Shown here: positions 11,584 through 22,076 of the stretch, one piece after another
How the letters are laid out: each line of letters begins with the position of its first letter
Position numbering within the stretch: position 1 is the stretch's first letter
Assembly (NCBI GenBank): GCA_964628025.1
Contig: CAZVLL010000005.1
Location: 667 to 64,666 of the forward strand
Reading direction: 5' to 3'
DNA from: an uncultured Syntrophaceae bacterium
Lineage (GTDB): Bacteria > Desulfobacterota > Syntrophia > Syntrophales > UBA2192
Length of the DNA stretch: 64,000 bases
Notes under the pieces: generated by a model
What the model was told of the DNA's origin: nothing
Database searches by the model: none
What the model saw: the letters and a program-made list of their open reading frames with translations, nothing else
Position numbers and translations under genes: made by a program

Positions 11584-13014
11584 ATGAGCGCTCGCAAGAT
11601 AACCATCGAACCCGTGACGAGAATCGAAGGCCACGGGCGGGTCACGATTCATCTGAACGAACAGGGGGATGTCGATCAGACCTTCTTCCATGTGGACGAG
11701 TTCCGCGGTCTGGAGAAATTTTCCGAGGGGCGCCCCTATCTCGAAATGCCCCAGATCACCCAGCGCATCTGCGGCATCTGCCCCGTCAGCCACCACCTGG
11801 CAGCCGCCAAGGCCTGCGACGGCGTGGCACGCGTGGAGCCCACCCGGCCGGCAACGCTTTTGCGCGAGCTGATCCACATGGGCCAGTTCATCCAGTCCCA
11901 CGGGATGCATTTCTTCCACCTGGCCGCGCCGGATCTTCTCCTGGGCTTTGACGCCGACCCGGCGACACGCAACGTCTTCGGAATCATCAAGGCCAACCCG
12001 GAGCTGGCCGTCAAGGCCGTGCACCTTCGCCGTTTCGGACAGCAGATCATTTCGCGGCTCGGGGGCGGCAAACGCGTCCATCCCAATCTCTGCGTCCCCG
12101 GCGGGGTCAACGCCCCTCTCACCTCTGAGGACCGCGACGCCATCGCCGCCGAGCTCGACGGCATGACCGAGATCGGAAAGGTCGCACTCAGCATCGCGCG
12201 GGGCTGGCTGGAGTCCAACCGGGAGCTCGCCGATACCTTTGCCGCGTTCCCGTCCAACTACATGGGGCTCGTCGACGAGGAAGGGGGCCTGCAGCTTTAC
12301 GACGGAGAGATCCGCATCAAAGACGCCGAGGGGAAATACCTCGCCCAGTTCAGGACGGATGCCTACCTGTCCCACATCGCCGAACACGTGGAGCCCTGGT
12401 CATTCCTCAAGCACCCCTACTACCGCAAGCAGGGATTCCCGCAGGGCTTCTACCGCGTCGGCCCGCTGGGGCGGATGAACGTGATCGACAAGATCGGCAC
12501 ACCTCTGGCCAACGAGGAGTTCAAGCAATTCAGGACGCTCAACGGCGGCAGGCCCGTCGAAGGGTCTCTTTACTACCACTACGCCCGGATGATCGAGCTG
12601 CTCTACAGCCTCGAGCGCGTCGGCCAGCTGCTGGACGACCCGGATATCCTCTCCAGGGATGTCCGCAATTATCCGAAGCTGCAGCTTCCCGGACAGGGAG
12701 TCGGCGTGATTGAAGCGCCCCGGGGGACCCTGATCCACGACTACAGCACCGATGAAAACGGCATTCTGACGAGGGTGAACCTCATCGTGGCCACGGGCAA
12801 CAACAACTGGGCCATGCACACGGCGTCGGGCTCCGTGGCAAAGGCCTTCGTAAAGGGCAACTCGCTCACGGAAGGCATGCTCAACCGCGTCGAGGCGGCC
12901 ATCCGCTGCTACGATCCGTGCCTGTCCTGCGCGACCCATGCCATAGGCAAGATGCCGCTGGACGTCACGCTCATCGCTGCCGACGGGACCGTGCTGGACC
13001 GCGTCTCACGCTAG
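11584..13014 (+). CDS. [NiFe]-hydrogenase large subunit, group 3
   Basis: 476 aa. It has the N-terminal RICGICPVSH and C-terminal DPCLSCATH Ni-Fe ligand motifs, followed by a C-terminal extension for endopeptidase processing. Confidence 0.9.
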   Translation: MSARKITIEPVTRIEGHGRVTIHLNEQGDVDQTFFHVDEFRGLEKFSEGRPYLEMPQITQRICGICPVSHHLAAAKACDGVARVEPTRPATLLRELIHMGQFIQSHGMHFFHLAAPDLLLGFDADPATRNVFGIIKANPELAVKAVHLRRFGQQIISRLGGGKRVHPNLCVPGGVNAPLTSEDRDAIAAELDGMTEIGKVALSIARGWLESNRELADTFAAFPSNYMGLVDEEGGLQLYDGEIRIKDAEGKYLAQFRTDAYLSHIAEHVEPWSFLKHPYYRKQGFPQGFYRVGPLGRMNVIDKIGTPLANEEFKQFRTLNGGRPVEGSLYYHYARMIELLYSLERVGQLLDDPDILSRDVRNYPKLQLPGQGVGVIEAPRGTLIHDYSTDENGILTRVNLIVATGNNNWAMHTASGSVAKAFVKGNSLTEGMLNRVEAAIRCYDPCLSCATHAIGKMPLDVTLIAADGTVLDRVSR

Positions 13015-13041
13015 ATATACCAAGACGGAATGGCCAATAGA

Positions 13042-13076
13042 AAGCGGGTGAGCGCAACGCGTTCACCCGCTTCTTA
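13042..13076 (+). terminator. hairpin between large subunit and protease genes (possible attenuator/partial terminator)
   Basis: The stem AAGCGGGTGA...TCACCCGCTT is followed by a short T-containing tail. The T-tract is weak. Confidence 0.3.
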
Positions 13077-13101
13077 ATTCTGATATCCCGGAAACACCCC
13101 G

Positions 13102-13587
13102 ATGAAACGGACACTGGTGATAGGGTTCGGAAACGTGGACCGCGCTGACGACGGCGTCGCCTTCCACATCGTCAATGCCTTCCGGCATCAGCTGGGGCAG
13201 GAACCGCTCAAAGAAGACAAAACGGGCCTCGAGGAACTCGGCGCAGCGGTGGACTCCGTCTTCATCGGCCAGCTCGTGCCGGAGATGATCGATCTGCTTG
13301 ACGACTACGAACGGGTCGTTTTCGTGGATGCCCATGTCGATCCGGCCATGAACGATCTTTACTGCGCATCCGTCTCGCCCGACGAGGCCGGCCTGACCTT
13401 CACCCACCACATGAGCCCGGCCACGCTTCTTGCCTTTTTCAAGGCCCTCCATGGCCGCGACATTGATGGCCACCTCGTGTCCATCCGCGGTCGCGATTTC
13501 GACTTCCACCGCAATCTCTCCGCTGACACGATTGCGCTCATAGAGCCGGCTGTCGAACGGATCCTGGAACTCACCTCTGCCTCATGA
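13102..13587 (+). CDS. hydrogenase maturation endopeptidase (HoxW/HybD family)
   Basis: 161 aa. The N-terminal LVIGFGNVDRADDGVAFHIV matches the GxGNxxxxDDGxG family signature. It sits downstream of the large subunit. Confidence 0.8.
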   Translation: MKRTLVIGFGNVDRADDGVAFHIVNAFRHQLGQEPLKEDKTGLEELGAAVDSVFIGQLVPEMIDLLDDYERVVFVDAHVDPAMNDLYCASVSPDEAGLTFTHHMSPATLLAFFKALHGRDIDGHLVSIRGRDFDFHRNLSADTIALIEPAVERILELTSAS

Positions 13588-13805: not shown

Positions 13806-13844
13806 GACGGGCACTCTTCTCAAGGACGGGCACTCTTCTCAAGG
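13806..13844. repeat. perfect 19-bp tandem duplication (ACGGGCACTCTTCTCAAGG x2) at the 3' end of the Hcp-like gene
   Basis: Units at 13807-13825 and 13826-13844 are identical. The stop codon of the minus-strand gene (13820-13822) lies inside the first unit. Confidence 0.9.
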
Positions 13845-14383
13845 GCAGTCGGCCCGCCCGTCCATATCCATTCGGCGCCCTCGTAGGTGAACGAGACCTG
13901 TTCGTAGGTCTCCAGTTTCACTTGATCCGGAATTCTCACGTTCGGCATGACGGTTTTGATCGAAACGATTCGTGCGCTTGTGAGCTTTACCGTATAATTT
14001 TGAACTTCTGTGCCTCCGCCACCGGCCGCACCGCCTACATTCGGAGCCCAGAATTTAATGGTCGCGTCCGGGATGAGCTCGTTATTGAGCAACATCGTCC
14101 GGAGCACCGGCGACGATTTGTCGATCTCCTTCGTGATGGTGATCTGACCGGAACGCAGGCGCCCCGTCGTCATGCCCGTTGCTGCATCTGTTGCGATCCT
14201 CGACTCCTGATCGAATGCGATAACCCCGATGGAGCCCTCTCTTCCCTTCTGCGTGACACCGCCATAAACAGGCCCCGTTTTCTGCCCTTTGACGTAAAGG
14301 TTTGCCATGATTGCAGCGCTGGCAAGGGCTGTAAACACGAACGTAAATGTGACGACGAACACGACAATGGCTTTTTTCCGCAT
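13820..14383 (-). CDS. Hcp (TssD)-like protein carrying an N-terminal Sec-type signal peptide
   Basis: 187 aa. It is collinear with enterobacterial Hcp/TssD as recalled from memory: REGSIGVIAF, TGMTTGR...ITITKEIDKSSPVL, KFW, YTVKLTSARIVSIKTVMPN, ETYEQVSFTYEGAEWIW. The N-terminus MRKKAIVVFVVTFTFVFTALASAAIMA looks like a signal peptide. Confidence 0.7.
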   Translation of the reverse strand: MRKKAIVVFVVTFTFVFTALASAAIMANLYVKGQKTGPVYGGVTQKGREGSIGVIAFDQESRIATDAATGMTTGRLRSGQITITKEIDKSSPVLRTMLLNNELIPDATIKFWAPNVGGAAGGGGTEVQNYTVKLTSARIVSIKTVMPNVRIPDQVKLETYEQVSFTYEGAEWIWTGGPTALEKSARP

Positions 14384-14490
14384 GCAGGCCTCCTTTGCCT
14401 ATGAATTTGCATGATGAATGCTGTCTTATCCGTTCCGCTTCTTCAGGGTGCCGGTATATCCCTCTCTCTGCAGAAGTGATTGCTTAGGAA

Positions 14491-15747
14491 TCAGAACAGT
14501 CCCTTGAGTTTGTTCAGTGTCCCCTTGATGGTCTCGGTGGCCCCGCCGCTCTCCTCACTGGCCGGTTGATCGCCCCGCTTCTGCCGGCTTTCTTTTGACC
14601 TGCCGCCTTCCTTCATTTCCTCCATTCCAAGCGGGAGCATTCCGGTAGACTTGTTCCTCAGCTTCATGGCCCAGATATAGTCATGAGGCTTGGTCGAGTC
14701 TTTTGGCTTTGGCGGATAGGCGATGTTCAACTCATCGCCGTAGCCGATGAACTGCAGCACTGCCCCTTTTCCGTCCTTGAATATGCCCCTGGGTACCGAA
14801 CAGCTTGTTACCTCGGGCCCCATAACCACCTTCTCCCTGATGAACCTGCTGACATCTGCCGGGGAGAGATAGTTTATCAGGCCGAAGCCTGGATCCTGAA
14901 CCTCGCTGGACGACCAGATGATGGTCTCGCCGGTCTGCTCGTTATGGCCCATCGCCACGGAAAAATAGCCGATTGCCGTGGGGATCTTCTTCCACTGGAA
15001 TGCGATACTTTCTGTCAACCCTCCCTTGACGGCGGTAAATTCAACAGGCGCCATGAAGTCATGCCTCTCGCCAACGGCGAATTTAATATCCGGGGTGTAA
15101 TTGCCGTGGATGAAGTGGCTTCCCAGTAAGGAACTGCTTTTCGGCACACTCTGCTGATCGCTCTTGTTGGGCCATTCCGAATAGGCCCATCCTGTCCTCG
15201 GGGATGGTGGAACCTGACCCGACCCGGAGCGGCCCGCCATGGCCTTTCCGAATTCGATCATGCTCATCTTCTCGGTGTCAAGGACCCTCGGTTGTCCCGG
15301 TCGCACCGTCTCGCTGCACCCCCAGTAAAAGAGCATGCGCACCTTGGGTTTTTCCACCTCTCGGTCTGACCCTTCTCCACTGCGCACCGGCTTTTCACGC
15401 TCGGGAATCAGAAGAGGCAGGGTCTTGCCCATATCCAGGCCGGGAGGGATGTCGTGGGTTGCTTCCGGGGCTGCCGGGGGAGTGCCCGGTGCACTGAGTT
15501 GCAAAAGGAGGCTTCTCTTCGGCCCCATTCCCCCGGGCATCATTTTTCCCATGAGCATTCCCTGCATTCCCGTCATTTCTCCCTGCGGCATGCCTGGAAT
15601 ACTTGTATTTTGTATTGCAACACTCACCCAGTACTGGGTTACAGGTTTTTTTTGCTCTTTCTCCGCCGCGCTCACAAGCGAAACAGAAAAGAAAAGAATC
15701 ATTGCCAGAATCGTGCAGCACGATTTTGAGAGAAGAGTCATGTCCAC
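14491..15747 (-). CDS. secreted hypothetical protein with Met/Gly/Pro-rich N-terminal region
   Basis: 418 aa. It has a signal peptide (ILAMILFFSVSLVSAAEK), then IPGMPQGEMTGMQGMLMGKMMPGGMGP, and a basic/acidic tail. No family was recognised. Confidence 0.6.
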   Translation of the reverse strand: MDMTLLSKSCCTILAMILFFSVSLVSAAEKEQKKPVTQYWVSVAIQNTSIPGMPQGEMTGMQGMLMGKMMPGGMGPKRSLLLQLSAPGTPPAAPEATHDIPPGLDMGKTLPLLIPEREKPVRSGEGSDREVEKPKVRMLFYWGCSETVRPGQPRVLDTEKMSMIEFGKAMAGRSGSGQVPPSPRTGWAYSEWPNKSDQQSVPKSSSLLGSHFIHGNYTPDIKFAVGERHDFMAPVEFTAVKGGLTESIAFQWKKIPTAIGYFSVAMGHNEQTGETIIWSSSEVQDPGFGLINYLSPADVSRFIREKVVMGPEVTSCSVPRGIFKDGKGAVLQFIGYGDELNIAYPPKPKDSTKPHDYIWAMKLRNKSTGMLPLGMEEMKEGGRSKESRQKRGDQPASEESGGATETIKGTLNKLKGLF

Positions 15748-15880
15748 TTCACCTCCATGAGTAGTCTTTGAATCCCTGACCGGTTATGACGCAAAGGATG
15801 CAACCGTGAACTGCGGCAGAACAGGATTTTCTTGTTTCTCGTTTGCTCGTCTGAGACGATGAACACTCTTTTAATCGACC

Positions 15881-15909
15881 TTGACACGCAATTTTCTTTA
15901 TTCTATCTT
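15881..15909 (+). promoter_or_regulatory. candidate sigma70-type promoter of the + strand secreted-protein operon
   Basis: TTGACA (15881-15886), a 17-nt spacer, then TATCTT (15904-15909), within the AT-rich divergent intergenic region. Confidence 0.3.
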
Positions 15910-15973
15910 TACCTCCAAAACAAGACAATAATAATAAAGCATACACGTCAAGTCTGCTGAAAACAGGATTCGC

Positions 15974-17152
15974 ATGAGGCATCCACATTCTCGTTTGCGT
16001 CGGTTTTCTTGTTCAATTTTCATGTTGCTCCTGAGTGTCGGTCTGCTTTCACATCCTGTGTCGACAACAGATGTCAGGGCACAGTGGCCGCCTCCCCAGG
16101 ACGCTGCTGCACAAAATCCCCAGGATGTTCCCTCTCAACCGTATCCATCCGGTGAGACCGTCCCTCCCTCCATGCAGTCTCCCACGCAGTCTCAGTCGCC
16201 GATCCAATCGCCACTGAAACAGCAAAGCCAGAAAAGAGGGCAGTCACAGCAACAACAACAGGGCATGCCTTCCGCACCGGGATACCCGCAGGCTTCCCCC
16301 GGTTATCCGCAAGCGGCCCCGATGCAGGGCCCTCAGCAACCGCAGACGAGCTACCCTCAGGGAGCACAAGGGGGAAGTCAGTGGGGCCAGCAGCAACAGT
16401 CGCCTTACCCCCAGGGACCGGCCCAGGGCGGTCAACAGCAGCAGATGATTTACCCGCAGGGAGCAACTGTGCCGGGGAATGTTCCCATGCAGACCGACGC
16501 CTGGGGTCAACCCGTTCCGACGCAGGGTGGCCAGCAGCAGACGGGCTACCCGCAAGGAGTGCAAGGAGGTCAGTGGGGCCAGCAGCAGCAACAGCCGCCT
16601 TACCCCCAGGGACCGGCCCAGGGCGGTCAACAGCAGCAGATGATTTACCCGCAGGGAGCAACTGTGCCGGGGAATGTTCCCATGCAGACCGACGCCTGGG
16701 GTCAACCCGTTCCGATGCAGGGTGGCCAGGTTCCACAGCCCGGGGTTTATCCGCAAGCACAGCCTGGACAGCCGGGGATGATGCCACAGCCCGCCATGCC
16801 TGCCGCCGCACCCCAGGGCTGCAATGTCCAACTCAGCCAGGACCGTCAGACCGTGATTTTGAAGGACTCTGCGGGTCAGGACAGAGATCACATATCGCTG
16901 GGTGAGGACCGCGTTCAGAAGATTTTCAAATCAAAAGAAGGCAGCTGGTCTTTCGTCGTTTTCAAGGTCAGGCGCGTGGAGCAATTCGGAGCTTTTGCCA
17001 TCGACCTGTCCAGTTGCCAGGCGCAGGACCTCGTCGAGATATCGGCGGTGCCGACAGATGCGGCCTTCGAGGGAGAGGACATTCTCCTGACTTTTTCGGG
17101 AGGGAAGACAACACGGCTCAAGCTCGTGAACAGAGTCATCGTCGAGAAGTAG
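15974..17152 (+). CDS. secreted Q/P/G/Y-rich (prion-like, low-complexity) repeat protein with a globular C-terminal domain
   Basis: 392 aa. A signal-like N-terminus (FMLLLSVGLLSHPVS) is followed by about 240 aa of YPQG/QGGQQQQ-type repeats. An ordinary-composition C-terminal domain begins at CNVQLSQDRQTVILKD. Confidence 0.7.
   Translation: MRHPHSRLRRFSCSIFMLLLSVGLLSHPVSTTDVRAQWPPPQDAAAQNPQDVPSQPYPSGETVPPSMQSPTQSQSPIQSPLKQQSQKRGQSQQQQQGMPSAPGYPQASPGYPQAAPMQGPQQPQTSYPQGAQGGSQWGQQQQSPYPQGPAQGGQQQQMIYPQGATVPGNVPMQTDAWGQPVPTQGGQQQTGYPQGVQGGQWGQQQQQPPYPQGPAQGGQQQQMIYPQGATVPGNVPMQTDAWGQPVPMQGGQVPQPGVYPQAQPGQPGMMPQPAMPAAAPQGCNVQLSQDRQTVILKDSAGQDRDHISLGEDRVQKIFKSKEGSWSFVVFKVRRVEQFGAFAIDLSSCQAQDLVEISAVPTDAAFEGEDILLTFSGGKTTRLKLVNRVIVEK
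16381..16729 (+). repeat. tandem duplication (period ~192-195 bp) inside the Q-rich gene
   Basis: 16402-16520 is identical to 16597-16715 (119 nt). After a single mismatch, identity resumes through GCAGGGTGGCCAG. The block encodes PYPQGPAQGGQQQQMIYPQGATVPGNVPMQTDAWGQPVP twice. Confidence 0.9.
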
Positions 17153-17213
17153 CCGTGATTCGTGATCGGTGGCAATCAAAACGCACAAGCATCGATGGAG
17201 GAGTAACGATTCA

Positions 17214-17972
17214 ATGAAACGCGACAAATGGATTCTTGTACTGCTGTCGATAATGCTTTCCGTTCTGCTCTGCGCCCACGTCTCGATGGCGGCGGGGCTT
17301 TTCGGCGACGATGAGGACGCCGTCGTCGACGATTCCGGGACGAGCAAGAAGCTGAAAAACCTGAAGCGGCAAGCGGGACCCAAGCCCGTCGTTGCCATTT
17401 ATGATTTCAGGAGCACGGTCCCTGACGTCCCCACGGCATCGGCACTGGACATGTTTGTCACAGCCCTGGTGAAATCGGGGGCATTCACCGTCGCAGAGCG
17501 TCAGAGAATACAGGAGGGCGTCTCCAAGGAACGGCAATTCCAGGCATCCGGTGCTGCAACCGGACGGGCCGCCAACACCAAGTTTGCAGGCGCCCAGTAC
17601 ATTTTTGAAGCTGCGGTGACCGAAGGCAATCCCAACGAAAAGCAATCGGAAGGAAACATCAGCGTCGGGGGAATGGAGATGGGGCGCGCCGGGGTTACCG
17701 ATTCGATTGGTCTTGACGTACGGATCATCAGCGCCGAGACGGGCCTGGTGATCGACTCCGTGAATGTTCGCAAGAAAATCGAGGCGGCCCAGGGAGGCGT
17801 TTCCGGTATCGGAAAACTGGCCCAGAGTGTCGCGGGCCTTTACAAGAAATCCGTGCCGCTCAATCCCGATGCGAATGTGAAAATTGCCAGGAAGGAAAGC
17901 GTCGACAAGGCCCTGAGATCCTGCATCGAAGCGGCTGTTCTGGAACTGGCGAAGAGGCTTTCTGAGGATTGA
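17214..17972 (+). CDS. CsgG/HfaB-family outer-membrane secretion channel-like protein
   Basis: ATG at 17214 follows GGAGG. It is collinear with E. coli CsgG as recalled: VAIYDFRS..., ALDMFVTALVKSGAFTVAERQ, AQYIFEAAVTEGN, IGLDVRIISAETGLVIDSVNV. A signal peptide is present. Confidence 0.7.
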   Translation: MKRDKWILVLLSIMLSVLLCAHVSMAAGLFGDDEDAVVDDSGTSKKLKNLKRQAGPKPVVAIYDFRSTVPDVPTASALDMFVTALVKSGAFTVAERQRIQEGVSKERQFQASGAATGRAANTKFAGAQYIFEAAVTEGNPNEKQSEGNISVGGMEMGRAGVTDSIGLDVRIISAETGLVIDSVNVRKKIEAAQGGVSGIGKLAQSVAGLYKKSVPLNPDANVKIARKESVDKALRSCIEAAVLELAKRLSED

Positions 17973-17974
17973 GC

Positions 17975-18607
17975 ATGAAACACAAAAGGGCGAATCCGTT
18001 CCTCATCCTTTTTTTCATGGTTGCTGCTGGTGTGATGTGTCCGGATGCGGCGCTTTGTCATGAGAAAGACATCATCCCTGCTTATGTGATGTATGCCGAC
18101 GATTATCCGCTTCATGTCAGTTTTTTCTTTGAGGGTGGAAGCCCGATCGAGCGAATGACAGGCAGAAGGGAAAAGTGGTACGCCCTGTATGAATCCTCTC
18201 TACGTCCCGGGTATTATCGGATCATGTTAAAGCACGGCGGCGAGCCGTCCAGTGTGAGGCTGTACGTGCTGGAAAGCGAACCATCGGAGCGGTTCAATGC
18301 CAGGCTGGAGCTTCCCCTGGAACGGGTTACGTTTTATGACAATTCTCGTCGCAACTATCACCTGTATCAGTCGAATATCGGCATTGCAGGTGATTTCAAA
18401 AGGACGAACATCCATTTCATATTGGAGTGGACGCCGCCTCCGGGAAGACATGAACCGATCCAGGCATCGTTTCAGATCATAACTCTATCCCATACGGAGG
18501 ACAACAACCGGCAATCTTCGTCATTTTTTTCCGATAAGTGGACGGTGCGCAGTCCCCTGGAAAGCCAGAACCGCCGGGGACCGATCATATTGCCCAACTC
18601 GAAATAG
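17975..18607 (+). CDS. secreted hypothetical protein
   Basis: ATG at 17975 lies 2 nt after the csgG-like stop. Signal peptide is MKHKRANPFLILFFMVAAGVMCPDAALC. No family was recognised. Confidence 0.55.
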   Translation: MKHKRANPFLILFFMVAAGVMCPDAALCHEKDIIPAYVMYADDYPLHVSFFFEGGSPIERMTGRREKWYALYESSLRPGYYRIMLKHGGEPSSVRLYVLESEPSERFNARLELPLERVTFYDNSRRNYHLYQSNIGIAGDFKRTNIHFILEWTPPPGRHEPIQASFQIITLSHTEDNNRQSSSFFSDKWTVRSPLESQNRRGPIILPNSK

Positions 18608-18684
18608 CCCGGATAGTCAATTCATCTCCATCAGCGGGGCGGGAGATTCTGCCGGATGTTCCTAAGCGATGGTCCGAGTCGACC

Positions 18685-19194
18685 ATGAACACCGATAACG
18701 GGTGTAAGAGAGGTAATCCATGCCACGGGTGCCCTGCGCCGTGTTGCCAGGTTCAGCTCCATCACTACCAGGCCCCTGCCACCTTGAAGGATCTTGACAT
18801 GGCAAGATACCGGCTCCTCTATCCAAAAACGGAATTCGTCTTTTGCGATACGGGGGACTGGTATCTGCTCCACTGGAAAACATGCTCCTTTTTTCTACGA
18901 GAAACATGTGCTTGTTCCGTGCACAGTTCTTCCCAGAAACCACAGATATGTGACTCTTTCAATCAAGACGATTGCTGGTTTAAACAGAATTTTATCGAAG
19001 CCCCCGAAAAGACCGTCATCCGGATTGATCTCCTGCGTTTCGAGCGTTTGCTGCAAGAGGTAAGACAGACGGAATCGGGGGGAAATGTTCTATTGCCGCC
19101 TTTCGAAGAATCACGCCGCATCGTCTCAGGAATTCCAGTTTCACCTGCCTTTTCCCCCGTCTACCCTGAGGCGGAAGCGGCCCTCGATGCATGA
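18685..19194 (+). CDS. cytoplasmic Cys-cluster protein (YkgJ/CxxCxxCC-like zinc- or iron-chelating domain)
   Basis: The internal ATG at 18685 (MNTDNGCKRGNPCHGCPAPCCQ...) is preferred over the track start at 18538. It is Cys-rich (CHGCPAPCC, CSFFLRETCACS, CDSFNQDDC). Confidence 0.45.
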   Translation: MNTDNGCKRGNPCHGCPAPCCQVQLHHYQAPATLKDLDMARYRLLYPKTEFVFCDTGDWYLLHWKTCSFFLRETCACSVHSSSQKPQICDSFNQDDCWFKQNFIEAPEKTVIRIDLLRFERLLQEVRQTESGGNVLLPPFEESRRIVSGIPVSPAFSPVYPEAEAALDA

Positions 19195-19664
19195 ATCAAC
19201 AAAGGAGGAAGATCATGGCTCTCGTTCGAAGAAGTGTTCACTATACCGTATGGATCGCAGGGTTTCTCGTATCCATGGTGTTTAGCTGGTTTGGATGGTC
19301 TGTCCCCCCATTTGCCGAGGCAGCCAGGATAAAAGCCCCGCGCGTATTTACCTCAGACCAGGCCCTGCAACAGAGCATCCCTTTCACGAAGCAGTTGAAT
19401 GAAGAGACGTCGCGGAGGTTGCTGGCGGATGCCGCCACTGCGCCCAAACCGGACACCTATCAAGGGCAGGTTCCCGTATCCCAGCCGAGACAAGCCTTCA
19501 AGCTGGAGGACAAAAAGGAACTGAAACCATCCCGGTTGCCTGATAAGGAAACGTCTCAACCCAAGCAAGCGTTGAAACTGGAATCCGTCGCCCCCTCAAG
19601 CATGCCGTCGAAAAAGGCGCCACAGACCACACAGCCCCTGCAGACCATGACGAAGACGGATTAG
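19191..19664 (+). CDS. membrane-anchored or secreted hypothetical protein with an internal SQP[RK]QA[FL]KLE repeat
   Basis: 157 aa. Its start overlaps the previous stop (ATGA). It has one hydrophobic segment (VWIAGFLVSMVFSWFGW) and a K/P/Q/S-rich tail. Confidence 0.5.
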   Translation: MNQQRRKIMALVRRSVHYTVWIAGFLVSMVFSWFGWSVPPFAEAARIKAPRVFTSDQALQQSIPFTKQLNEETSRRLLADAATAPKPDTYQGQVPVSQPRQAFKLEDKKELKPSRLPDKETSQPKQALKLESVAPSSMPSKKAPQTTQPLQTMTKTD

Positions 19665-19750
19665 GCACGTGCCGGATCCGGAGATCTTCCGCCCATGATG
19701 ACAAGGAAATGCATGGATCTCTCTCGTGAATGGGAATCAGAGGTGTGGGA

Positions 19751-20515
19751 ATGAATCAACCCCAGGATCCACGCATCTATCTTCTCGGTTCCGGTATCTT
19801 CAGTTTCTACGACTTGACCCTGTACACCCAGCATTTGCTTCAAGAGTGCAAATCCGTTTTTTACCTGCACGATCTTCCGTCCCTTGAGCGGCATATCACC
19901 CGACTCAAACCGGATGCGGTCAACCTGATGCCGCTCTACTATATCGACGGCAGGAACAGGACAACGATTTATTCGGATATCACAAAACACATCCTCCAGA
20001 GTGCCCGGGAAAATCCACCGGTGGCCTTTTTGATGCATGGCCATCCACTGGTCTTTTCCTCCATTTCTCAACTGATTATCGAGGAAGGAGAGAAATCGGG
20101 CATACCTGTTGAAGTGGTTCCAGCTGTTTCTTCCCTGGACCGAATGTTTGTGGATCTGAATCTGGATATTGCTGACAGGGGAATTCAGATTTTTCACACA
20201 TCCATGGCCATTGCGAATCATCTGACATTGAATCCCCATGTCGACAGCCTCTTTTTGCAGATCGGGTCCGTCGGCGACAACACGGCAAGGCGCAACGAAA
20301 CAGTCTCTCTTGAAGGTGTCCGCTCCTTCAGTCAGTATCTGCTCGATTTCTATCCGGGCCATCATGATGTCATCGTCATAGAATGTGCGATTGAACTGGG
20401 GTTTGAGAGCAGACTCACAGAGATAACGATCGACCGTCTGCCGGAGGCGGCCCTGGCGTTCAATTACAATGCCAGTGCATACGTACCTGCTCTTTCGAAG
20501 TCATTTTCACCATAA
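19751..20515 (+). CDS. borosin-type (OphMA-like) peptide alpha-N-methyltransferase, TP_methylase superfamily, stand-alone (split) form
   Basis: It is collinear with the fungal OphMA methyltransferase domain as recalled from memory. Matching segments are IYLLGSGI / IVGTGI, SVFY / KVFY, LYYIDGRNRTTIY / YYDNGKSRLNTY, HGHPLVF / YGHPGVF, VPAVSSLDRMFVDLNLD / LPGVSAEDCLFADLCID, LFLQIGSVG / LVLFQVGCVG and AYVPA / FYIPP. Confidence 0.6.
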   Translation: MNQPQDPRIYLLGSGIFSFYDLTLYTQHLLQECKSVFYLHDLPSLERHITRLKPDAVNLMPLYYIDGRNRTTIYSDITKHILQSARENPPVAFLMHGHPLVFSSISQLIIEEGEKSGIPVEVVPAVSSLDRMFVDLNLDIADRGIQIFHTSMAIANHLTLNPHVDSLFLQIGSVGDNTARRNETVSLEGVRSFSQYLLDFYPGHHDVIVIECAIELGFESRLTEITIDRLPEAALAFNYNASAYVPALSKSFSP

Positions 20516-20648
20516 AAGCGACAAGAATGGCCGTACCGAATATAAAATCGTTTTTCAATCACTGCCAACACAAAGACGAACAGCAGACATGGAAAAATTG
20601 GCAGTGATCTACACGATTATTTTTTATCAGAAACAGGGAGGGAATGTG

Positions 20649-22076
20649 ATGGCTCTGAACACGAGACGATTACAGACAGTACTGATGGGAATGGCGATGC
20701 TTCTTTTTATTTGCGTGGGCATGATGCCGTCGCCTGCCGAATCAGCGGAGACCGGAACGTTTCCCGGCGGGCCTGACAATGCTGCAACTCTCCTTGCGCA
20801 ATTGCAGACCTCACCCGTGAGGCCGGTTGTCCCGTCTGTTCCCAAAACGGCCATCCAACAAAAGGCGAATCTGACGTGTCCGTCCGGGGCGCCGATTTCC
20901 TCCTCCACCGCGGGGTGCCTTAAGGTCGTCTGGTCCAAGAAGATCTGCAATGAAGACGGCAGGCAGTCGGTTCAGTTTTCACCGAACAATATGGACGTTG
21001 ACTGGCAGGGAGGGCGGATATTCGCCGGGTCGTACGAAACGAACAGGGATTATGGAACCGCCCTTCAACGATTGCGCGCGTTTCGTTTCTCCGATGGAGC
21101 ACAGATATGGGAAAAACGCAATACAAGCAAAACCATAATTTATTTCGGGGCCCTGGCCTATACCAATGGACGGATCTTCAACAGCTGGACCGGGCTCGAC
21201 GCCTTCAACGCCAATGACGGCTCACTCTTGTGGCAAGCCCCCCCATTCATCGGGGGCGGCGGCTACAGCAATGCCTGGATAATCGCCAAGAATCAGAATC
21301 TTTACGCGAATCCGACCATTTTCGATAAATCTACTGGCCAATCCCTCCAATATCTCCAGGTCCTCGATCAGGCAACCGGTACGGAACGCTTGCGATATAA
21401 AACGGGCTGGTTATATAGCCAGCCACTGATCATCGGCAATGCTGCCTATGCCAACATGGGGATTAGCGGCATGGTCTTCCTGGATCTGGGGAAGCCTGCA
21501 TTGATGTGGAGTATCGCGCCTTCCGGTCTGTCCAAGACCTCTAAAGGTTTCTACAACAATCAGGTTTACCTGGGAGTCGGCAGTGAAATCTTTGCCGTGG
21601 ACAGCGCCACCGGGAAGATTACGCAACGATATGCCCTGCCAAAATGTGTAACATACACGAACAATCCCGGGCAACAATACTGCTTCAACTACGCGAAAGG
21701 TGTCCTCTCGCCATTCACCTTATCCATCGACCGGGCTGTTTTCATTAACAGCAGCGGTGATCTTCAGGCCCTCAATCTCCAGACCGGATCCCTTCTCTGG
21801 AGTACCTTAGCCGGTGGTTCCACGACAATCTATGAGAATATCGCTCCAGCGGTTGTCAACGGGGTCGTCATCACATCTTCCTGGAAAACTACCTACAATG
21901 CGAGTAATCTCAGTGTAAACACCTATGGCGTGAATGTCTATGATGTCACCAGCGGTCAAGAGCTGGCCAGCGTGCCCACCGGCACTTTGATGGTTCTTGA
22001 TATTAAAGTGGCCCCCGACGGTTCCGCCATCGTGGTTCGAACACCGGAAGATCTCATATTCCTGGCAACACGTTAA
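20649..22076 (+). CDS. secreted PQQ-like (BamB-like) beta-propeller repeat protein
   Basis: ATG at 20649 follows GGGAGGG. It has a signal peptide (LMGMAMLLFICVGMMPSPAESA) and repeated ...DG(S/A)xxW... blades (SDGAQIWEK, NDGSLLWQAP, TGSLLWST). Confidence 0.7.
   Translation: MALNTRRLQTVLMGMAMLLFICVGMMPSPAESAETGTFPGGPDNAATLLAQLQTSPVRPVVPSVPKTAIQQKANLTCPSGAPISSSTAGCLKVVWSKKICNEDGRQSVQFSPNNMDVDWQGGRIFAGSYETNRDYGTALQRLRAFRFSDGAQIWEKRNTSKTIIYFGALAYTNGRIFNSWTGLDAFNANDGSLLWQAPPFIGGGGYSNAWIIAKNQNLYANPTIFDKSTGQSLQYLQVLDQATGTERLRYKTGWLYSQPLIIGNAAYANMGISGMVFLDLGKPALMWSIAPSGLSKTSKGFYNNQVYLGVGSEIFAVDSATGKITQRYALPKCVTYTNNPGQQYCFNYAKGVLSPFTLSIDRAVFINSSGDLQALNLQTGSLLWSTLAGGSTTIYENIAPAVVNGVVITSSWKTTYNASNLSVNTYGVNVYDVTSGQELASVPTGTLMVLDIKVAPDGSAIVVRTPEDLIFLATR

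Follow-up and report, generated by a model that had tools for sequence, protein, structure and literature searches.

What is known of the CsgG family comes chiefly from curli and, less so, from the anchor of the Caulobacter holdfast. Curlin repeats are free of proline, and the targeting element of CsgA is an N-terminal targeting peptide; PelC, LpoB and GNA1162, which share an alpha/beta core fold with CsgG-type proteins, are lipoproteins, PelC and LpoB being periplasmic adaptors under the outer membrane. In CsgG itself Tyr51, Asn55 and Phe56 form the eyelet (PMC6957492), and one report has CsgE capping CsgG (PMC6050966). In Caulobacter, HfaA and HfaD require the CsgG-like HfaB in order to localise to the surface (PMC6707917), and in engineered iDP2 display, disordered proteins carried on CsgF and exported via CsgG drive cell-cell condensates (PMC12595443). 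Here we describe a locus within a window of 64,000 nucleotides (the whole stretch of DNA that was analysed; contig CAZVLL010000005.1, assembly GCA_964628025.1) from an uncultured Syntrophaceae bacterium, in which a gene for a protein with a Q/P/G/Y-rich tail (gene A) is followed by genes for a CsgG-fold protein (gene B) and a small protein with a signal peptide (gene C). A preliminary description had taken A for a secreted prion-like repeat protein, and a candidate amyloid or hydrogel-forming substrate of the adjacent CsgG-like channel. The available evidence is that the conserved element of A is its folded C-terminal domain, not the repeats, and the reading of A as the cognate partner of a divergent CsgG-fold ring is robust, with this domain as its putative docking module.

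In its working the A-B-C module, with a CsgG-family protein and dedicated secreted partners, comes closest to curli and Hfa, yet by the features that define them it belongs to neither. As in curli, B has a Pfam CsgG domain and aligns with CsgG over 212 columns, its model fits the membrane form of CsgG best, the gene next to it encodes a Q-rich signal-peptide protein of low charge, and a small accessory-like gene follows. By contrast with curli, B has neither a lipobox nor the loop of residues 42-56, its second transmembrane (TM2) region is predicted to be helical, the conserved element of A is a folded C-terminal beta domain, the A repeats are proline-rich and unconserved, and no match to Curlin_rpt, CsgE or CsgF was obtained with Pfam and NCBIfam in A and its eight neighbours (13820-22076). 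As in HfaA-HfaB-HfaD, there are three genes, with a CsgG-like protein between two secreted proteins, and a role in cell-surface anchoring or cohesion, rather than in free fibres, would be shared. However, B scores 16.1 bits against the HfaB equivalog NF037935 (cutoff 300), homology of A and C to HfaA or HfaD was not detected by NCBIfam or Pfam, and no holdfast polysaccharide genes were seen near the window locus. The iDP2 system shows a disordered, phase-separation-prone polypeptide at the surface via a CsgG-type pore, held by an anchor, as is proposed for the A tail, but it is synthetic and employs canonical CsgG with CsgF and another anchor.

Results

The conserved element of A is a folded C-terminal domain

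A search of 5.8 billion clusters with full-length A returned one protein (P0001), which is 99% identical to A, minus exactly one 65-residue unit. Over 5.4 kb the DNA of its contig (L001) shares 98% identity with the window, and the neighbouring genes are the same. The low-complexity region suppressed real relatives in this search, and they were recovered with the C-terminal domain alone: the C-terminal 112 residues gave 79 matches at E<=1e-3 among 1.84 billion representatives, and in all 79 the domain is C-terminal. No Pfam family covers any of 44 members of the domain family, scans of Pfam, NCBIfam, PHROGs, PADLOC and PDB sequences yielded nothing for the A domain or for gene C, and A as a whole has no Pfam or NCBIfam match, curlin repeat included. 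A PDB-sequence match to GhpA, with no qualifying stretch, was disregarded. The domain is an unannotated family, new to the databases. A profile search of a word-indexed database with a 44-member alignment gave 17 proteins, which is not a measure of family size, and the search for related loci (below, L numbers; proteins, P numbers) used an 8-sequence alignment and the pattern LG[QER]DRVQK[IV], thereby sampling the closer subclade only.

With the family alignment as input, AlphaFold2 (AF2) models the domain as all-beta with ten strands (predicted local distance difference test score, pLDDT, 93.9), which bears out the earlier view of an ordinary C-terminal domain of ~110 residues. In a fold search it matched only stretches of ~100 residues from propellers of the WD40, YncE and TolB types (E ~4e-3; template modelling (TM) score, normalised to the query, 0.5-0.65), and as modelled the domain is roughly a 2.5-blade propeller fragment, with which its SPDGxW motif agrees. 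The family motif, LG.DRVQK..SPDG.W..V.K.RG, lies in a ~105-residue all-beta C-terminal domain encoded beside the CsgG clade. Homology to CsgE, CsgC or HfaA was considered and rejected, there being no sequence evidence for it and the fold being propeller-like and all-beta.

Two cysteines stand out in the domain family. In A, Cys283 lies at the junction of tail and domain, with Cys348 as its partner; the pair, one Cys at the junction and the other at about position 75, is present in 66 of 71 non-anchored members and in one of the nine membrane-anchored members described below. A disulfide between them is probable. The distribution of the pair would agree with a staple that holds against traction by the tail, or with a demand for added stability in an extracellular setting.

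The N-terminus of A comprises RLRR, the hydrophobic segment FSCSIFMLLLSVGLL and, by eye, a type-I-like cleavage context (VRA↓Q). Its assignment as a signal peptide is supported by the N-terminal hydrophobic segments that are common family-wide among A relatives, and by the conserved Cys pair; A is very probably extracytoplasmic, as the preliminary description supposed. The open reading frame (ORF) itself is as then claimed, with the peptide quoted at residues 126-163. An AGGA motif lies 8-11 nt 5' of the ATG. Sigma-70-like consensus matches in the region number four, against 1.8 expected, and the site 5' of A (Table 1) is a consensus match alone. The possibility that A is a chance ORF in a DNA repeat was rejected, since its C-terminal domain is in frame and conserved, a signal-peptide-like N-terminus and a ribosome-binding site are present, and the strain variant differs by an indel of 195 nt that keeps the frame. 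Minus-strand ORFs at 16074-16811 (245 residues) and 16244-16891 (215 residues) are shadows of the repeat coding region, not genes.

The domain travels with a divergent CsgG clade

Gene B starts 61 nt 3' of A, with a GGAGGAG ribosome-binding site before its ATG at 17214. The adjacent CsgG-like gene of the preliminary description is confirmed as such: the product scores 67.7 bits against Pfam CsgG (PF03783, cutoff 20.8), also matches Pfam LpoB, and aligns with E. coli CsgG by hhalign at 97.5% probability over 212 columns. Its AF2 model (pLDDT 84.9) has as best Foldseek matches the membrane-form CsgG structures 6l7c and 4uv3 (E 6e-15, TM-score 0.60-0.65), and fits the pre-pore form 4uv2 less well (TM-score 0.46). 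The next tier consists of PelC, GNA1162, HpaA and FlgT, which are CsgG-fold relatives that are not pores. PelC, LpoB and GNA1162 have the same alpha/beta core (Foldseek E 1e-4 to 5e-6), but B is far closer to CsgG and keeps a long hairpin resembling the first transmembrane hairpin (TM1); most members of its clade also differ from these lipoproteins in lacking a lipid anchor. As modelled, then, B has the CsgG fold and falls in a divergent clade. Its relatives are numerous, at 50-65% identity, in metagenome-assembled genomes (MAGs) of Syntrophorhabdaceae, 'Deltaproteobacteria', Deferrimicrobiaceae and Burkholderiaceae, the nearest being from Syntrophorhabdaceae and 'delta proteobacterium' MAGs.

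Among the recovered loci the A domain and the B clade travel together in four arrangements. The window, L002-L010, L019-L022 and L025-L027 have the order A-B-C (the L001 sequence stops inside B); B-C-X-A, where X is a further gene, occurs in L012, L015 and L028; B-A in L017; and B directly after a fusion of TIR domain, membrane helix, linker and A domain in L016, L031 and L032. Gene C is present in most A/B loci and absent from the TIR-type and B-A loci. In L018, L023 and L024 the gene lies at the contig start, with no 5' flank to read, and L029 and L030 are incomplete. In L011 the match covers only part of the domain (residues 3-85) and no B was detected 3' of it, and P0190 (L013, L014), the most divergent domain member, has no detectable CsgG neighbour. 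The linkage, on the conservation of which in other genomes the preliminary description had made its case depend, is strong, and its persistence through rearrangement points to A and B being functional partners. No description of the module, of the A-domain or C families, or of a CsgG-TIR association was found in the literature searched.

Two genes 3' of C, for a CxxCxxCC protein (18538-19194, +; PF03692, below cutoff), which overlaps the end of C as called, and a 157-residue membrane or signal protein with a P/Q/K-rich tail (19191-19664, +), were considered as module parts and rejected, being absent from all related loci. In the high-GC locus L012 (2919-4559), X encodes a 546-residue signal-peptide protein with duplicated TGGDDLRGGNDN motifs and no Pfam match, and an OmpA-family gene precedes B. 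P0190 (3863-6346 in L013/L014) adjoins a weak phage-tail-sheath C-terminal match and three integrase genes.

The tail is variable in sequence and rich in proline

The tail (residues 37-282) is 28% Gln, 20% Pro, 14% Gly, 4% Tyr and 1% Asn, with Asp, Glu, Lys and Arg together making up 3.3%. In it the motif YPQ occurs nine times, YPQG six times, GQQQ five times and WGQ four times. The preliminary description had ~240 residues built from such units; this length holds for the low-complexity region (246 residues), but the YPQG-type units are limited to about residues 100-262 (~160 residues), and residues 37-100 are P/S/Q-rich and have none. The copy number of the 65-residue unit in the tail core differs between near-identical strains (A and P0001), as is typical of exposed repeat proteins, with assembly collapse of the repeat a possible alternative cause of the one-unit difference.

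In the wider family the N-terminal regions range in length from 0 to ~400 residues (the repeat part from 0 to ~370) and cannot be aligned across secreted members, and the dominant tail residues vary, relatives being Q-rich, G/S/Y-, G/A/S/Y-, P/S- or A-rich. The P0140 tail is 46% Gln, and independent Q-rich arrays occur in L003, which carries (QQGMPP)8, and in L024 (2-700), the tail of which consists of (QQLQQ)n and (QQYQQP)n arrays within which the contig ends, from which it is probable that the Q-rich arrays of this family are under-assembled in metagenomes. Two secreted members, P0179 and P0184, are nearly tail-less. What the secreted relatives share is a style, i.e. an uncharged, Q/G/S/P-rich and proline-rich tail with spaced Tyr; pooled, their tails are 18% Pro, 15% Gln, 12% Gly, 6% aromatic and 6% charged, compared with 20% Pro, 5% Gln, 1% aromatic and 23% charged for the pooled linkers of the TIR/TM-anchored members.

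The likeness to the yeast prion protein Sup35, on which the prion-like label was based, is compositional only. The A tail resembles Sup35N in its low charge, richness in Gln and Gly, spaced Tyr and oligopeptide repeats, and the low-charge, Q-rich style recurs in secreted relatives. By contrast, it has 20% Pro against 4%, 1% Asn against 18% and 4% Tyr against 18%, and A is extracytoplasmic, in so far as its N-terminus can be relied on, whereas Sup35 is cytosolic. Its prolines have a median spacing of four, with a longest proline-free run of 18 residues. Scored in the manner of PAPA, for which prion propensity is taken as >0.05, the tail reached a maximum of -0.06 against +0.10 for Sup35N, both values being approximate; a positive prion propensity was thus not obtained. 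The closest compositional analogues of the tail are high-molecular-weight glutenin and MaSp2 silk, with motifs such as PGQGQQ and GPGQQ/GPGGY, and the tail is unlike the curlin repeats. These properties fit a fast-evolving disordered polymer, rich in polyproline-II or turns and maybe cohesive, and a cross-beta core does not fit them. With 20% Pro in the tail an amyloid is not supported, and nothing found shows the tail to be one; that reading is unlikely, and of the earlier proposal the hydrogel or cohesive-coat part is what stays plausible.

Some relatives hold the domain behind a membrane anchor

In nine family members the domain stands behind a membrane anchor and a charged, proline-rich linker of 58-156 residues. 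In seven of the nine the N-terminus is a cytoplasmic TIR domain, after which comes a membrane helix, with TIR_2 scores of 58 and 86 bits in the two anchored members scanned against Pfam, and the other two (P0166, P0185) have hydrophobic N-terminal segments with the TIR domain absent. A CsgG-clade gene lies directly 3' of the TIR-type gene in all three loci looked up, and a SLATT_1/DUF4231 gene lies 5' of the TIR-type locus in L032 and L033. Export of the N-terminus is impossible in these anchored members, so that the domain has to reach the ring from within the periplasm, and because the linkers are long enough to span the periplasm, a location of the B ring near the outer membrane is suggested. 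It is possible that the TIR/SLATT loci constitute a trans-envelope defence or signalling device.

Table 1. Positions of the features of the locus (window numbering) and of the TIR-type fusions (numbering of the respective loci)
Feature	Position	Strand	Description
Sigma-70-like promoter match	15881..15909	+	TTGACA-17-TATCTT; ~65 nt 5' of the gene A start codon
Gene A	15974..17152	+	392 aa, ATG start; signal peptide, disordered Q/P/G/Y tail, C-terminal beta domain
Signal-peptide-like N-terminus of A, residues 1-36	15974..16081	+	RLRR / FSCSIFMLLLSVGLL / VRA↓Q, read by eye
Low-complexity tail of A, residues 37-282 (246 aa)	16082..16819	+	predicted disordered
Tandem duplication in A	16342..16729	+	195-nt / 65-aa unit, 2 copies, 92% identical; core of tail; far above chance
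C-terminal domain of A, residues 283-392 (110 aa)	16820..17149	+	all-beta, 10 strands, propeller-fragment-like (model)
Gene B	17214..17972	+	252 aa, divergent CsgG clade, predicted type-I signal peptide, no lipobox or constriction loop
Gene C	17975..18607	+	~205-210 aa, signal peptide, unannotated family; reported as overlapping the stop of B
TIR-type fusion, L016	5001-7169		CsgG-clade gene directly after
TIR-type fusion, L031	297-2348		CsgG-clade gene directly after
TIR-type fusion, L032	3209-5958		CsgG-clade gene directly after

Neighbouring genes

Divergent from gene A, 14491-15747 (-) encodes a 418-residue signal-peptide protein with a Met/Gly/Pro-rich stretch, IPGMPQGEMTGMQGMLMGKMMPGGMGP; it has no Pfam or PADLOC match and is conserved only in the near-identical strain L001. 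Beyond it, 13820-14383 (-) encodes an Hcp/TssD-family protein (PF05638, 77.9 bits; TIGR03344, 95 bits) with a signal-peptide-like hydrophobic N-terminus, MRKKAIVVFVVTFTFVFTALASAA, which is unusual for a type VI secretion system (T6SS) tube protein; no other T6SS genes were present among the neighbours checked, and L001 has the same Hcp arrangement. Just 5' of the locus, within 11584-13587 (+), lie a 476-residue ORF (11584-13014), the counterpart of which on L001 was called as a [NiFe]-hydrogenase gene (NiFeSe_Hases), and after it a 161-residue ORF. The hydrogenase gene near the locus suggests an anaerobic host.

Discussion

The reading that we tentatively favour, in the knowledge that it has somewhat less than an even chance of being right, is one of threaded display, in which A is docked by its end domain while its tail, disordered and non-amyloid, is sent outward to form a cohesive coat on the surface. 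A would be exported to the periplasm via its signal peptide, where the 110-residue C-terminal beta domain would fold, probably with a disulfide one Cys of which is at the tail/domain junction, and would then dock on an outer-membrane-proximal ring made by B. The free N-terminal tail would be fed outward through or past the ring, with the Cys-stapled domain staying behind as stopper and anchor. In the 246-residue tail composition (uncharged, proline-rich, with spaced Tyr, Trp and Met) would matter, rather than sequence, and the outcome may be a tethered, hydrated coat giving matrix or cell-cell cohesion, not a curli-like fibre. The secreted product of gene C would be a third member of the module in most lineages. 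This reading is favoured by the CsgG fold of B, by the free N-terminus of the tail and its composition unlike that of true tethers, by the repeat-number polymorphism and the junction Cys, and by the precedents of HfaB and of engineered display of disordered proteins via the curli pore.

Several observations weigh against threaded display, most of them concerning B. By analogy with CsgG we infer that B may be an outer-membrane pore, and the preliminary description of a CsgG-like channel holds as regards domain and fold, but not as regards the lipobox, the constriction loop or a convincing TM2 hairpin. The lipobox is absent in 110 of 120 members of the B clade, in which a type-I cleavage context is conserved (AFA↓EE..VDNS); B of the window has the non-lipobox sequence VLLC and the context SMA↓AG. 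Every B partner examined has a 15-residue deletion corresponding to mature residues 42-56 of E. coli CsgG, including Y51, N55 and F56. The TM1-like hairpin (E129-151, E154-173) is mostly polar and Gly-rich, with about four alternating hydrophobic residues at its tip, and the TM2 region is predicted to form an amphipathic helix (199-209); with a polar TM1 hairpin and a helical TM2 region a transmembrane pore is unproven, and B could instead be a periplasmic ring like PelC. Moreover, the pairing of domain and ring works without N-terminal export in the TIR/TM-anchored relatives, and the near-tail-less P0179 and P0184 imply that the core function can do without the tail. The signal peptide and disulfide of A are read from sequence, and the module as a whole is known here from sequences and predicted models.

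The same features of B lend themselves to a second possibility, on balance doubtful, in which A stays periplasmic and its domain binds a periplasmic or outer-membrane-associated CsgG-fold ring that is not a pore, in the manner of PelC/LpoB, the tail serving simply as a flexible spacer or entropic bristle, or to contact peptidoglycan. Besides the missing lipobox, constriction loop and clear TM2 hairpin, such an adaptor would be consistent with the non-pore proteins that form the next structural matches of B and its Pfam LpoB match, with the anchored relatives, which hold the domain at the end of a periplasm-spanning linker, with the dispensability of the tail in some members and with the OmpA-family gene in the L012 operon. 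However, a spacer with a free N-terminus tethers nothing, the secreted tails differ from the anchored tethers in both charged and aromatic content, as given above, and the B model is nearer to the membrane-inserted than to the pre-pore form of CsgG.

It may be, alternatively, that B is a wide pore the lumen of which is filled by docked A tails, as in FG-nucleoporins, or that the domain caps this pore as CsgE does CsgG. That every B partner has lost precisely the Y51/N55/F56 loop would be in accord with this, as would the uncharged tail with its spaced aromatic or Met 'stickers' and the size of the A domain, at ~110 residues similar to that of CsgE. Nevertheless, such a gate or plug is improbable given that the pore status of B itself comes from analogy, that the tail-less P0179 and P0184 exist, and that the linkers of anchored relatives are charged and non-cohesive.

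Similarly improbable is a role of domain and ring in sensing an event at the envelope, e.g. phage attack, with the N-terminus a swappable effector, be it a TIR NADase or a gel-forming tail. The TIR_2 fusions always adjoin B, a SLATT_1/DUF4231 gene is 5' in two loci and there are weak ThsB-like PADLOC matches, but no PADLOC match was obtained for the window genes A, B and C, their locus lies among housekeeping-type genes (hydrogenase, methylase) rather than in a defence island, and an extracytoplasmic disordered tail is no obvious effector. We likewise give little weight to a combination in which B would be an unusually wide outer-membrane pore with a phase-separated A-tail gate, and in which sister lineages would wire the pair to a TIR trans-envelope alarm.

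Finally, the proposal that the Q/P/G/Y repeats are secreted via a CsgG-like pore as an extracellular functional amyloid, i.e. a curli analogue with a new subunit, has little to recommend it: the conserved linkage to a CsgG-family gene, the Q-rich, low-charge, Tyr-containing composition, the very Q/Y-rich relatives (P0140, L024) and the HfaA/HfaB precedent speak for it, and against it stand the frequency and spacing of proline, the scarcity of Asn, the low, if approximate, PAPA-like maximum, the lack of curlin-repeat, CsgE and CsgF matches in A and its eight neighbours, the unconserved repeats, with tails of relatives that are G/A/S- or A-rich, and a conserved, folded domain with a Cys pair, which would not get through an eyelet of the curli type.

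As to what the finding means for the family, the locus adds a CsgG clade, present across Desulfobacterota-type and Burkholderiales-type genomes, that is without lipid anchor and eyelet, and a dedicated, unannotated partner domain that is fused either to prion-like disordered tails or to membrane-anchored TIR domains. It also counsels caution, in that a Q-rich protein encoded beside CsgG should not be read as an amyloid. The module, of two to three genes, is directly testable under any of the readings. If the tails are displayed at the surface, they would be a natural counterpart of engineered disordered-protein display and a way to matrix cohesion that does without amyloid; a ring that is not a pore would represent a new periplasmic use of the CsgG fold.

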